From assembly GCF_022846255.1 (NCBI RefSeq), contig NZ_AP025682.1: a DNA stretch of 64,000 bases; one strand, given 5' to 3'. The DNA is from Escherichia coli (lineage in GTDB: Bacteria > Pseudomonadota > Gammaproteobacteria > Enterobacterales > Enterobacteriaceae). This document shows, piece after piece, positions 3,001 to 15,000 of the stretch; the stretch's first letter is position 1; each line of letters opens with the position of its first letter. Made by a program: the position numbers.

Positions 3001-6000
3001 AGCGATGACTGTACAGATCCGCCATTTCTCCTCCGGGGAAGCGCATGGCGTCCGTCATCGACGTCAGCAGATGGCAGACTTTTCCTTTGCGCGTCACGGT
3101 CAGCAGGCGGGCTGTCACTTCATTTCCCAGTCCCGGCCACTTTTTTCGTGCCTGCGGGCTGGTTTTCAGCTTCACCAGATGATCGCCTTTACCCAGTTTT
3201 CTGATCTCTTCATATTGCGCTCCCTTTCTGAGAGGTATCATCCAGTGGCGGTGTTCTCCCGCCAGGCTCCAGGCATTTAACAGTCCCAGTGAGTAATAAC
3301 CTTTATCCATTAACGTCAGAGTGTTATCGCCGGTTTGTTCTATAAGTTGCTCAGCAAGCTCATTTTCGCTGTTCTTCATCGTGCCGAAGGCTGCAGCCGT
3401 CAGCAGATGGCTGGTCAGTTCCATCTGGCAGACCATTTTGACCTGCGGGTAGAGCGCCGGGTTCCCGGCATGTGTCTGGCGGGGGAAGGCTGCATCGTTC
3501 TCTGGTGTATCCGGTGTGCGCCAGAACACACCATCGATGGCCAGCAGGGTCAGGCCGCACCAGTGCGGATGCGGCGTGGCGTTATGCCAGAGCTGCGCTG
3601 TTTTCGTGAACACGCGGCGGACAGCCTCACTTCCCAGGCGCTGGCGGGCCTGAATAACGGCACTGGGGGCAACGAAGGGGCGATTGCCCGGCAGCATGAT
3701 GTCCAGGCGATTCACAATCTGGTGAAGAGGTTCTTTACGCTCAAGCGCCATGCCAACAATACACCAGACCATCATTTCGAGGGGAAGACGGCGCTTGCGT
3801 AGCGTTACAGTACCTGATTCGGCAAGGCAACGAGAGATGAGTTCGGGGTCGAGGTAATCCCCCAGAGAAGTCAGTGGGTTACGCAGAGAATCGTAACGGG
3901 ATACCAGATCAAGAGCCTGTCCAATGTGCATAAAAAAATCCGGAAACAAGTGAGCGTTTCCGGATTCTTACACAGCCACTGGATCGGTCAACTGATCCTT
4001 AACTGATCGGCATTACAGCCTTCGGGCTGGCATTTTTTATGGTTGAGTTACCAGCGACCGGACGCGCCGCCACCGCCAGAAGAACCGCCCCCGCCGCTAA
4101 ATCCGCCGCCACTTGAGCCGCCACCGGAACCGCTGTTGTCTGAATGATAACTTCTACCAGATGCTTTTTTCTGAAGTACACATAAACAGGTAAAGACCAT
4201 AATGGTGGTGAAAGTAAAAAAGAAGAAAAATACAGCAATGGAAAAAGTTTTATCGGAGAACAGGAATAAATCTAAAAGATAGATTGCTGAAATACAGACA
4301 CTGCTTTTACATGCGCGACAAAAATTACTGCCTTGATGAAAAAACCAGAAAGGGAAGAACATCACTGCAAATACCCAAAAAATAGCAAAGTAGTAATGAT
4401 CGCTGGAAGACGCTGATTCACTTTCTGAAGGATTAGCCGAATATTGGTGTTGTGAAGTGAGTTGGTTATTCAAAGCGATTATAGCTAACTCTAATCCCTT
4501 AGCTAATTTTTGTTGTTTAAATGCGGGTATCATGTTGCTACGGATGATATCTCCAGCCAGAGCATCGGTTACCTTTTCTTCCAGCCCATAACCTACCTGG
4601 ATGCGGACAGTGCGATCCGACCAGGCAACAATGATCAGTATCCCATCATTGCGTTTGGCATCTCCTAAACGCCAATTGTTAAAAACCCTTGTAGCATATT
4701 GTTCAATTGTCTCGTCTTTGGTTGTGGGAATAATTAATACAGCAATTTGTACTTGGGTATTATTGAAAATAGATTCTAACTTCCGCGTCAGTTCTTTCTT
4801 TTCTTGTGAGTTTAAGCTACTCGTAAGATCCGTAACTTGTTGCTGTAATTGTGGGACAATAGTTGGTTGGGCTGCAACAAAGGAACACACGAATGTGAAT
4901 ATTAGTATGAAATAGCGCATTATAAATGTCCCATTAAAGCTGGATAAATAAATTGACGGCGGCATCGGTAATTTGAGATTCGTTATAATTAAAAACGAAC
5001 ACAGAAAAAATAAGTATAATTTTGGTGAATGTTTTTGACATGATTAAATCCCTTTACTTTATTTATTTCTGACATAATACGTTACTCCCTTTTATTATTA
5101 ACGATCTGTTTCTCATTTTTCTTTAAACCTGCCTGTAACAGAATGTTAATAAGACATGATTGTTGTGGCAGGATCTGCAATAATTAACAATTATCCACTT
5201 CACAGAGAATGCTATGCAGTACCCGATTAACGAGATGTTCCAGACCCTGCAAGGTGAGGGTTACTTTACCGGCGTCCCCGCTATTTTTATTCGTTTACAG
5301 GGATGCCCGGTCGGCTGTGCCTGGTGCGACACCAAACACACCTGGGAAAAGCTTGAGGATCGGGAAGTTTCCCTTTTCAGCATTCTGGCGAAGACCAAAG
5401 AGAGTGATAAGTGGGGGGCTGCGAGCAGTGAAGATTTGCTGGCTGTCATTGGTCGCCAGGGATACACCGCACGGCATGTGGTGATTACGGGTGGTGAGCC
5501 TTGCATTCATGATTTGCTGCCACTGACTGACCTGCTCGAAAAGAACGGTTTTAGCTGCCAGATCGAAACCAGTGGTACTCATGAAGTACGCTGCACACCG
5601 AATACCTGGGTTACCGTATCGCCAAAGCTGAATATGCGCGGCGGCTATGAAGTGTTGTCACAGGCACTGGAGCGAGCCAACGAAATCAAGCATCCAGTGG
5701 GACGCGTACGTGATATCGAAGCACTGGATGAATTGCTTGCGACGCTGACCGATGATAAACCGCGAGTCATTGCACTTCAGCCAATTAGCCAGAAGGAAGA
5801 TGCTACGCGTTTATGTATCGATACCTGCATAGCGCGCAACTGGCGTTTGTCGATGCAGACACATAAATATTTGAATATTGCCTGATTTGATTATTCATCA
5901 TTAATATTTAACGTTCAGGATGAAAATAATCGCCCCGTTTTACAGGGGCGATGCAAGATAGTGACGGGATTATCGGTAGCGTTTTTGTAGACTGGCTGGA

Positions 6001-12000: not shown

Positions 12001-15000
12001 CAGCCTGACGTATTTTCTCCATAGCCAGAAATGCGGTACTTCGGGAAGGTTCTGCACTGAGCGCAATGGAACAAAGATGGAGCCATTCACCCGGCCCAAA
12101 TGTAGGAAGGTCATCAGGTTGTAAAAAAAGATCGGCACTTGGGCGTACCATAAAGGTAAAGTTTCTTTCTCCTTGCTCATCAAGTCCTACAGCCACAATT
12201 GAGGTGCGATGTTGAGGATCAAGAGACATATAACGTGTATCAACATTTTCTTTACTCAGTGTCTGATACATAAAGCGACCGAAAGGATCATCGCCAACTT
12301 TGCCAATAAAGGCACTTTCCCCCCCCAGCCTTGCGATACCGACTGCAACATTAGCAGGCGCCCCACCAGGACACTGTAGTAGTCTCCCCTGGCTTTCGGG
12401 TAATAAATCAACAACCGCATCACCGAGTACCCATACTCTTGTGCTCATAAAGGCTCCAATATACTAATTGCTAAACAAATTAAATCGGTTTAGCAATTAA
12501 AGCATAAACGCTGCTCAGGAGAGAACAATATTCAGCAGTGGTTACCCGGTATTTTGTAGTGGAAACGTGAATATGCCGGGATTAATCATCTACCCGGCAC
12601 TGTTTATCTCACTTACGCATTCGACCAGCTCTGGATCGAATCCGCATTCCCCAATTCCCCATGCATCACTTCATACGATTTTTTCAGGATCACATCAGTA
12701 TGTTTGGTTAGGTCTTTGAAAATGCCTTTATTCATCGCGTCGTAGCGTTTGGCATTGCTCTCAATCGGTATGAAGATATCTTTCACGCGAACCATTTTAT
12801 CGACAGCCTTTGTGTAATCCGGGTATAGCCCCAGACCTACCGCCGTATTGATCGCAGCCCCCAGACTTGCACAACCGTTAATGGCGTTTCGGCGTGTCGG
12901 AAGGTTGAACACGTCGGCAAAAATCTGCATAAACAGATCGCTGTTCGAACCGCCGCCAGTAATGATCACATGCTTTGCAAAGTGATTCATTTCATGACAC
13001 ATATTGTCGTAATTATTCTTCAGCGTCAGCGCCACGCTTTCCAGTATCGAACGATATATCCATGCGTAATCCATACTGGAATCAAAGCCGATCATAATTC
13101 CGCGTTTGTACGGTTCCCACGGATTGGTCAGCCAGTCCAGCACCGTCATCAGCCCATTACAACCAGGTGGCACGCAAGACGCTTTTTTGTTGAGCAAATC
13201 TTCCGGTGAAAGATCCTGTGCTTTGGCATCCTGAATTAACGACTCGCCTAACATGTCGCGCAGCCAGCTCACCGTCCACATGCCTTTGCGAATACCGTAA
13301 CCTTCATACAGCAATGTTTGCGGAATAGAAGACATAATCGGCCAGTACGCGACCGGATCTTTCGGCAGTGCTTTGCCGTTCATCATCAACGCGATATAGG
13401 TGCCAAGAGAAATTACCGCCGTTTCATCATCCAGTAACCCGGCTCCCAGAGCTTCTACCGGTTTATCACTGGTGGTACAAACAACCGGCAGCCCAGCCGG
13501 GAAATGTGTCGCCAGCGCAGCTTGTGGTGTGATATGCCCAAGAACAGTGCCCGGCATTTGCACGTCAAAAAGCATCTGGCGGGGGATATTAAACTTTTCC
13601 ATTACCGCGGCATCTTTGCTCCATGCCCAGCTCTTATAATCCACTGGCCACTGACCAAAATAGTTGGCGATATTGTCTTTAAACTCGCCGGTTAAGCGAT
13701 GTGTCAGATAACCCGAAAAAGAGGTGACATAGGCCACGTCAGGATTAGTGTGTTCGTAAGGGCGTGTAACGCGTGCATCCTGCCAGCTAATCAACGGCGC
13801 GGCTGGCGTACCATCGGCTTTCAATAGCGCACGGCAGCAACGGATTGAGCCCAGGCCAATGCCGACAATATCTTCTTTATTTCCGGCAAACTGGCTCATC
13901 AAATCGTGGCCGGCAAAGCATAATGATGCCCATAAATCGTCGTCAGGATGTTCTGCGGTATCGGCATCTGGCGTGTGCATCGGCTGCAATAAGCCTTTGC
14001 CTTCGCAAACCACATTACCTTCCAGATCGTACATCACCACTTTTGTGCTCTGACTTCCGCCATCAATCCCTATGATGTATTTTTTCGACATGATTTTTCT
14101 CCTGTAATTTTCCTGGCTTACTTGCTGCTAGCCATTGCGGGGGCGCTATCAGCAGTACGAATTTTTTGGAACAACAAAAAGGTAAAGACGATCACCATGG
14201 CGAGCGCTGCCATGCCCATCAGCCACATGTTGCGGTAGGCTTCAGCGGCAGGTAGGGTGTCTTGCCAGTAGCCGATAATCGGGTAAACGAAGACATCCGG
14301 CAGGAATCCAATCACCGAACAAATACCTACCGTGGTGCCCATAATGTAAGACGGTGTTCTTGCTTCGCCGGGGCAGGCCCAGTACAGCCCGCGTGAGGCG
14401 TAACAGGTGAATCCCAGTAATAAAATCAGGCCAATCCCCATCGCGACCGATTGCGGGTTAGAGTTCGTGACGAGCAGGGCAGTTAACGCCAGCAAGCCGA
14501 GTACGGAAAGGATTTGGATCACGCGGGTAGGGGATTTCACTTTGCTGTAGGTGGTGATAATGCCACCAAGTGGGCCGCACAGTGCGCGGAAGATTTTGTT
14601 GATCACAATCCCCATGTAGCTCGCCGCCACCAGCGACATGCCGTACATTTCGGTCAGATAGTTGGTGGAGTAACTCAGAATGGCGTAGATGGTGAAGACA
14701 CCAAAAATCACCATGCTGCAATACCAGGTGGTGCTGATGCGCAAAACGGCCAGGATGTCGCTAAGCTGGAATGACTGTTTTTCTTCGTTATTGGTATTGC
14801 GCAGGTTGTTGTTATCGCTAACAAAAAACCAACACAAAATGCCCAGCAGAATGTAAACCACACTATAGATAATAATGACCGTTTTCAGGCTGGCGCTGTC
14901 ATCCGGTGCAAAGCGAGAAAAGACCCACATGGTAAACACCGCCAGCGACATTACACCGACGCCGCGCAGCCCTTCCATCCAGCCCATAATTTTCCCTTGC

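Follow-up and report, generated by a model that had tools for sequence, protein, structure and literature searches.

A complete scrKYABR sucrose regulon in place of the CRISPR-II locus between queE and ygcE of Escherichia coli

The interval between the core genes queE and ygcE in one Escherichia coli genome raises the question of what occupies it, what was displaced and how the present occupant came to be there. The window analysed here is a stretch of 64,000 nucleotides of E. coli DNA (assembly GCF_022846255.1, contig NZ_AP025682.1), and all coordinates refer to the whole of it; pyrG and eno come first, followed by the ygc, cys, rpoS-mutS and hyc regions. A first-pass annotation, made from the sequence alone, had placed a complete scr regulon for sucrose uptake by the phosphotransferase system (PTS) at 5886-12612, a span that proves to be exactly the queE-ygcE intergenic interval. 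The locus is very probably the chromosomal scrKYABR regulon of E. coli for PTS-dependent sucrose use, standing in place of the CRISPR-II locus (CRISPR, short palindromic repeats that are clustered and regularly interspaced).

Five long, contiguous and non-overlapping open reading frames (ORFs) fill 5970-12448, all on the minus strand and in the order scrK-scrY-scrA-scrB-scrR (Table 1). Families were assigned with NCBIfam models and their curated trusted cutoffs. In RefSeq, as annotated by the Prokaryotic Genome Annotation Pipeline (PGAP), scrK carries the label 'aminoimidazole riboside kinase'. ScrA has no IIA domain; its match to the 618-position IIABC beta-glucoside model covers positions 1-451 only. 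Among the NCBIfam models ScrY gives a weak match to those for LamB (maltoporin) only; its residues 93-505 align without a gap to the whole crystallised chain of the sucrose porin ScrY, 1A0S (E = 2e-226, 77% identity). The ScrB catalytic motifs MNDPNG, RDPKV and WECPD (NDPNG/RDP/EC) align with those of the sucrose-6-phosphate hydrolase in PDB entry 7VCO. Every ORF has one terminal stop. In about 75 further Enterobacterales species the orthologues have the same lengths and the order K-Y-A-B-R is kept. The ratio of non-synonymous to synonymous substitution (dN/dS) of the scr genes between strains is far below 1, and ScrB of the window is 100% identical to the representative of a cluster with 1,825 members. 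The first-pass claim of five complete genes in canonical order is thus confirmed, and the check for pseudogenes that it called for found the motifs intact and all five ORFs at full length. The gene cluster is an intact PTS sucrose regulon of the type found on pUR400 and in Klebsiella.

In the pUR400 and Klebsiella systems, ScrY lets sucrose across the outer membrane and ScrA, the enzyme EIIBC, imports and phosphorylates it together with EIIA-Glc of the host. ScrB splits sucrose-6-phosphate into glucose-6-phosphate and fructose, and ScrK phosphorylates the fructose. The genes form two units repressed by ScrR, scrK and scrYAB(R), and the repressor acts on both promoters through palindromic operators until inducer is present. 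In the window, the palindrome GCTAAACCGGTTTAGC, allowing at most three mismatches, occurs in three copies in 64 kb where 0.28 are expected, and all of them lie in scr promoter regions: at 11404-11419 and 11463-11478 upstream of scrY and at 12479-12494 upstream of scrK. The segment 12468-12506 is conserved to 85-92% upstream of scrK in Kluyvera, Klebsiella, Raoultella and Enterobacter. These putative operators match the two-unit, ScrR-repressed architecture. A terminator scan places the scrR terminator hairpin at 5929-5952 on the minus strand, with an 8-bp stem of which six pairs are GC, followed by a T-run. Judged by its sequence the cluster is probably functional, and the source strain is predicted to be sucrose-positive (Suc+). 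The cloned scr locus of strain SCU-147, at least 99% identical, was sufficient for growth on sucrose (Stephens et al. 2024, PMC11251922).

What the regulon displaced can be seen by comparison with two scr-less loci, from a B-strain derivative and from strain N12, in which the breakpoints were located by BLAST. Sequence shared with scr-less E. coli runs to 5887, two bases beyond the stop codon of queE, and is found again from 12608, five nucleotides before the ygcE stop codon, with 98-100% identity from there onward. The segment missing from scr-less genomes is 5888-12607, a block of 6.7 kb. In the B-strain derivative the queE-ygcE interval measures 1.8 kb and holds a CRISPR array with 16 type I-E repeats. 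In N12 the interval is 474 bp long and consists of a CRISPR2.3 leader of about 338 bp, two repeats and one spacer. Scans of the 64-kb window for the 29-nt type I-E repeat at up to three and up to seven mismatches found no copy even at the wider setting; six other scr-carrying loci hold no residual CRISPR repeats, and BLAST detected no homology to the CRISPR-II leader in the queE-ygcE interval of the window. Because the scr-less strains have the leader and repeats and the window has neither, scr replaces the whole CRISPR-II (CRISPR2.2/2.3) locus. The first-pass annotation had described an insertion between near neighbours. The site is correct, but the interval without scr holds CRISPR-II, so the event is a replacement of leader and array and not a simple insertion.

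The two ends of the block are themselves distinctive. The left junction was found only in the scr-carrying chromosomal locus and is absent from the plasmid and island forms described below and from 80 scr loci of other species. Read directly from the sequence, the right junction and the bases that precede it contain a hairpin, GCCGGG...CCCGGC, at about 12575-12600, downstream of ygcE.

None of the usual marks of a mobile element (transposase or integrase, terminal repeats, target duplication, tRNA or att site) was found at the scr borders. No integrase or insertion sequence (IS) touches the cluster, a tRNA scan found no tRNA in the 64-kb window, and between the block ends there is neither an inverted repeat nor a direct repeat of more than 8 nt; they share just two 8-mers, neither of which lies at a breakpoint. 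The earlier statement that integrases, IS and tRNAs are lacking next to scr therefore stands, with the caveat that a complete IS4 copy (2590-4015, 1426 bp; transposase ORF 2603-3949, minus strand) provides the nearest transposase at a distance of 1.9 kb. This IS4 sits in the eno terminator hairpin, between eno and ygcG, flanked by the 14-bp duplication CAGCCTTCGGGCTG. It was considered as the vehicle of scr and rejected on account of this target duplication of its own and its absence from most scr-carrying genomes, which makes it unrelated to scr. Strain MINF_1A has IS4 at the same site and in the same orientation as the window; strain AR_0013 also has a copy between eno and ygcG, oriented the other way.

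The scr lineage of the window (at least 95% identity) is present in 987 of 5,426 complete E. coli genomes and absent from the other 4,439. It lies in the queE-ygcE context in 840 of the 987, about one in six sequenced E. coli, and these include the enteropathogenic strain (EPEC) E2348/69, sequence type (ST) 131 and NC101. In the scr-carrying genomes listed, a single alignment covers 100% of the window segment 5000-13500. Genomes of the K-12 and B type lack scr at this position, in agreement with the first-pass annotation for K-12. A further proposal, that the neighbouring ygc cluster is a catabolic island and the region a hotspot for carbohydrate-utilisation modules, is not supported: in 5,044 of the 5,426 genomes the 25-kb stretch 13500-38400, which contains the ygc cluster, is present to 80% or more at a single place. 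The cluster is therefore essentially core, and the variable spot is the CRISPR locus.

The same lineage also occurs outside this site, and the remaining scr-carrying genomes have it either on plasmids or in another chromosomal island. In the set of E. coli genomes scr was found on plasmids in 40 places, and PLSDB holds 22 E. coli plasmid records with the same scr at 98.9% identity, of which 21 are predicted to be conjugative and which are of incompatibility group F (IncF) where inspected. A second chromosomal form, an island, is found in strains E5 and APEC E16002 and in one metagenome-assembled genome. The copies in NZ_CP023959.1, E5 and APEC E16002 are 98.9-99.0% identical to the window over 5969-12564. 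The plasmid and island module corresponds to the window from 5969 to about 12564-12581, but it has a further 461 bp beyond scrR that the window lacks, and it is without queE and ygcE; its neighbours are IS1 and tra genes, or genes for H-NS-like and outer-membrane proteins. Neither this plasmid-specific 461-bp segment nor the 81-bp left junction has a match in the loci from other species.

As a side observation, a scr module of 7,071 bp, made up of scr and the 461 bp beyond scrR, is common to IncF plasmids and the chromosomal island (loci L004 8540-15610, L005 6540-13610, L092 and L006), and its ends have no obvious flanking IS copies. The island with this module also carries genes for an H-NS-like protein, an outer-membrane protein and a phosphoethanolamine transferase.

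Composition sets the block apart from its surroundings, in line with the comparison that the first-pass annotation had recommended. The scr block has a GC content of 46.7% and the remainder of the window 51.8%, and GC at third codon positions (GC3) is 38-47% in the scr genes against about 52-61% in most flanking genes. The divergence between strains differs as well, in a comparison of the window with six other scr-carrying strains only. Nucleotide divergence is 0.4-1.1% in scr, 2.5-4.6% in queE and up to 4.5% in ygcE and ygcW-ygcU. Synonymous divergence (dS) in the same strain pairs is 0.00-0.07 for scr genes against up to 0.12-0.22 in queE, ygcE, yqcE, ygcW and ygcU, that is, about five-fold lower in scr than in the flanking core genes. 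The density of single-nucleotide polymorphisms per 500 bp is 10-30 outside the block and mostly 0-3 inside it, with a sharp step at the queE border. The genealogy of scr is thus several-fold shallower than that of its flanks, and this low synonymous divergence fits spread by homologous recombination. Because the comparison covers only six genomes, the history of this spread is one that we infer.

The neighbourhood shows further variation. Among the scr-carrying strains queE (5214-5885) and yqcE (14118-15395) are unusually divergent, and queE combines its dS of 0.12-0.22 with close to zero amino-acid changes, which suggests frequent recombination or old allelic lineages at the locus. The region upstream of queE (4048-5213) exists in two alternative forms in E. 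coli, either ygcG and yqcG as in the window or LemA with several TPM-domain genes. Both forms occur with scr, which fits recombination shuffling the neighbourhood. When 1-63300 of the window was compared in four pieces with complete RefSeq E. coli genomes, the best matches reached about 99.0-99.3% overall and 99.6% for scr alone. The best-matching genome changes from segment to segment (FHI_NMBU_03, the bat isolate A3 and FDAARGOS_1372), which suggests a source lineage that is mosaic or thinly sampled among complete genomes. The interval between rpoS and ygbN contains two ORFs (40199-42018), and their SCU-176 counterparts are annotated in RefSeq as a flavodoxin-family protein and a hydrolase of the metallo-beta-lactamase (MBL) fold; they belong to the rpoS-mutS interval, which we take to be a polymorphic region.

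Comparison with known systems places the window among the queE-adjacent scr loci of E. coli phylogroups B2 and F (EPEC E2348/69, ST131, SMS-3-5 and SCU-147), which have the same genes, site and junctions. The window is 99.5% identical to E2348/69 and ST131 at the nucleotide level over 5886-12612, and in the B2 and F chromosomes the CRISPR2.2/2.3 region is likewise replaced without flanking IS. Divergence from the nearest complete genomes is about 0.4-0.5% in scr and about 1-3% in the flanks, and the window has the extra IS4 between eno and ygcG. The experimentally defined prototypes, on the Salmonella plasmid pUR400 and in the chromosome of Klebsiella pneumoniae, share the order K-Y-A-B-R, an EIIBC without IIA, a hydrolase of glycoside hydrolase family 32 (GH32), a LamB-type porin, a LacI-family repressor and palindromes in two promoter regions, which in the window are putative operators. 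Amino acid identity between the window and K. pneumoniae is 91% for ScrA, 85% for ScrR, 74% for ScrY, 69% for ScrK and 66% for ScrB, and ScrY of the window is 77% identical to that of pUR400; at the DNA level, identity to other genera is about 75%. The scr of the window is thus a distinct sequence lineage, with its own GC content and another genomic context, and pUR400 and Klebsiella are not its source. The csc regulon (cscB, cscK, cscA and cscR) of E. coli W, EC3132 and others also confers use of sucrose and resembles scr in its fructokinase, invertase-family hydrolase and LacI-type repressor. In contrast to scr, csc is a non-PTS pathway with an H+ symporter instead of the PTS EIIBC, has no porin and lies at another chromosomal site; it is not in the window.

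The presence of scr at queE-ygcE in place of CRISPR-II is already published, among others by Touchon and Rocha (2010, PMC2886076). Stephens et al. (2024, PMC11251922) describe scr of B2 and F strains as adjoining queE at the location of the CRISPR2.2 array, where it replaces about 0.5 kb and lacks IS on either side; for earlier accounts they refer to Treviño-Quintanilla 2007 and Díez-Villaseñor 2010. In a survey from 2025 (PMC12736100), 47% of uropathogenic isolates had scr genes in the ygcE-queE region. The present analysis makes modest additions, namely the low GC3 of scr, its shallow genealogy relative to the flanks and the absence of a sampled donor.

The donor was sought in 100,044 GTDB species-representative genomes with ScrA as query and in 5.8 billion protein clusters with ScrB. 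The closest scr loci outside E. coli are those of Enterobacter and Lelliottia, with amino acid identities of 92-93% for ScrA, 86% for ScrR, 83% for ScrY, 68-70% for ScrB and 63-68% for ScrK, and about 75% at the DNA level; ScrR is 83-87% identical to that of Enterobacter and Klebsiella. For ScrB there is one cluster at 90% identity or more, with the 1,825 members mentioned above, whose named members are all E. coli. The next clusters follow at 72%, with nothing between 72% and 90%, and with the nearest cluster so distant no donor has been sampled. In other species, none of 80 scr loci has a homologue of queE or ygcE as its neighbour.

As the most likely history, a single illegitimate event in some Escherichia lineage would have brought in the DNA of an unsampled donor. 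Thereafter, homologous recombination of the ordinary kind in the core genes on either side would have carried the block from one E. coli lineage to another, and at every transfer the recipient would have lost its CRISPR-II array. This order of events is inferred. A bolder version is that scr is a single and comparatively recent arrival from a never-sequenced donor, which swept B2, F and other backgrounds through recombination in queE and ygcE and deleted CRISPR-II each time. We put this forward tentatively and at somewhat less than an even chance.

Several points weigh against the account of the locus given here. The low diversity of scr could partly reflect hitch-hiking, or flanks that are unusually recombinogenic beside the CRISPR locus, and the divergence analysis covers the six genomes already mentioned. 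Copies about 1% divergent on IncF plasmids and in the other chromosomal island show that other routes of transfer exist. Identities of 83-93% to Enterobacter for ScrA, ScrR and ScrY would be usual for Escherichia genes inherited vertically, so an old origin native to Escherichia, as Stephens et al. propose for B2, could also account for them. On sucrose, some scr-carrying E. coli isolates show slow growth or none (PMC11251922), and ST62 strains have a 1.9-kb IS3 insertion 12 bp into scrY (same source). Such Suc- or slow strains would suit a decaying remnant with pseudogenes or non-functional regulation, but with five full-length ORFs, intact motifs, no IS inside, a dN/dS far below 1 and a ScrB identical to the representative of its large cluster, the window hardly admits this reading.

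The alternative that scr is ancestral at this site, either in E. coli or in the B2/F branch, and was lost elsewhere, with CRISPR-II as the later arrival, agrees with the lack of mobility genes and junction repeats. It also agrees with a lineage that is essentially restricted to E. coli, with protein identities to other genera that resemble the divergence of orthologues between genera, and with the word 'native' that Stephens et al. use for scr in B2 (PMC11251922). This is nevertheless unlikely, because Salmonella and Escherichia have CRISPR2 at one and the same position of the core genome (Touchon and Rocha 2010, PMC2886076), which makes the array the older occupant, and scr-less strains of B2 type keep the leader and two repeats. 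The low synonymous divergence, the atypical GC3 and the lack of queE or ygcE homologues beside scr in other species argue in the same direction. Much less probable still is that a plasmid, transposon or conjugative element, in the manner of pUR400 or CTnscr94, delivered scr to the source strain recently. The 22 plasmid records, nearly all predicted to be conjugative, the island form and the nearby IS4 speak for such a delivery, but the plasmid and island modules have other ends and are about 1% divergent, unrelated scr-carrying genomes have identical junctions at 5888 and 12607, IS4 brings a target duplication of its own and does not occur in most of these genomes, and ScrY is only 77% identical to that of pUR400. 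The reading we prefer remains a chromosomal sucrose regulon that took the place of CRISPR-II.

Table 1. Positions of the scr genes, their borders and control regions, and the hok/sok module in the window
Feature	Position	Strand	Evidence or remark
queE (ygcF)	5214-5885	+	Core gene, left border; TIGR04322, 369 bits
Left junction, about 81 bp	5888-5969	-	Contains scrR terminator hairpin; queE-linked chromosomal form only
scrR, LacI/GalR-family repressor responsive to fructose/sucrose metabolites	5970-6977	-	335 aa; TIGR02417, 463 bits (cutoff 390)
scrB, GH32 sucrose-6-phosphate hydrolase	7003-8412	-	469 aa; TIGR01322, 549 bits (cutoff 356)
scrA, sucrose-specific PTS EIIBC	8412-9782	-	456 aa; TIGR01996, 650 bits (cutoff 559)
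scrY, sucrose-specific outer-membrane porin	9843-11360	-	505 aa; alignment to 1A0S
scrY promoter region	11361-11527	-	Two ScrR-operator-like palindromes and sigma-70-like site 11481-11454 (promoter scan)
scrK, ATP-dependent fructokinase, PfkB family	11528-12448	-	306 aa; NF006957, 512 bits (cutoff 450)
scrK promoter/operator region	12449-12581	-	Palindrome with 17-nt arms, 12465-12499, enclosing operator-like site 12479-12494
Right junction	12582-12607	-	Specific to queE-ygcE form
ygcE, FGGY-family sugar kinase	12613-14091	-	Core gene, right border; RefSeq annotation of matching loci
sok RNA	28537-28694	+	Rfam, 112 bits; sole hit of Rfam and tRNA scans
hok ORF	28679-28831	+	cysH-iap interval

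The second type I-E site of the window, CRISPR-I/cas-E, also has another occupant. The cysH-iap interval (28415-28955) is only 541 bp long; it has neither the type I-E cas operon nor the CRISPR2.1 array and carries a hok/sok module instead. With scr at CRISPR-II and hok/sok at the cas site, the source strain is without both I-E CRISPR loci. In E. coli without cas, hok/sok at the cysH-iap site has been described before (PMC3903273).

Strains of E. coli vary in sucrose fermentation, which serves as a diagnostic trait, and bioprocesses based on sucrose lend interest to the Scr pathway. The scr locus marks the erasure of the CRISPR-II array in many B2 and F lineages of extraintestinal pathogenic E. 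coli (ExPEC), and its shallow genealogy and absent donor bear on when and from where E. coli gained the pathway. If the recent sweep considered above is true, a trait of sugar use would have caused extraintestinal pathogenic lineages to lose a CRISPR array time and again.

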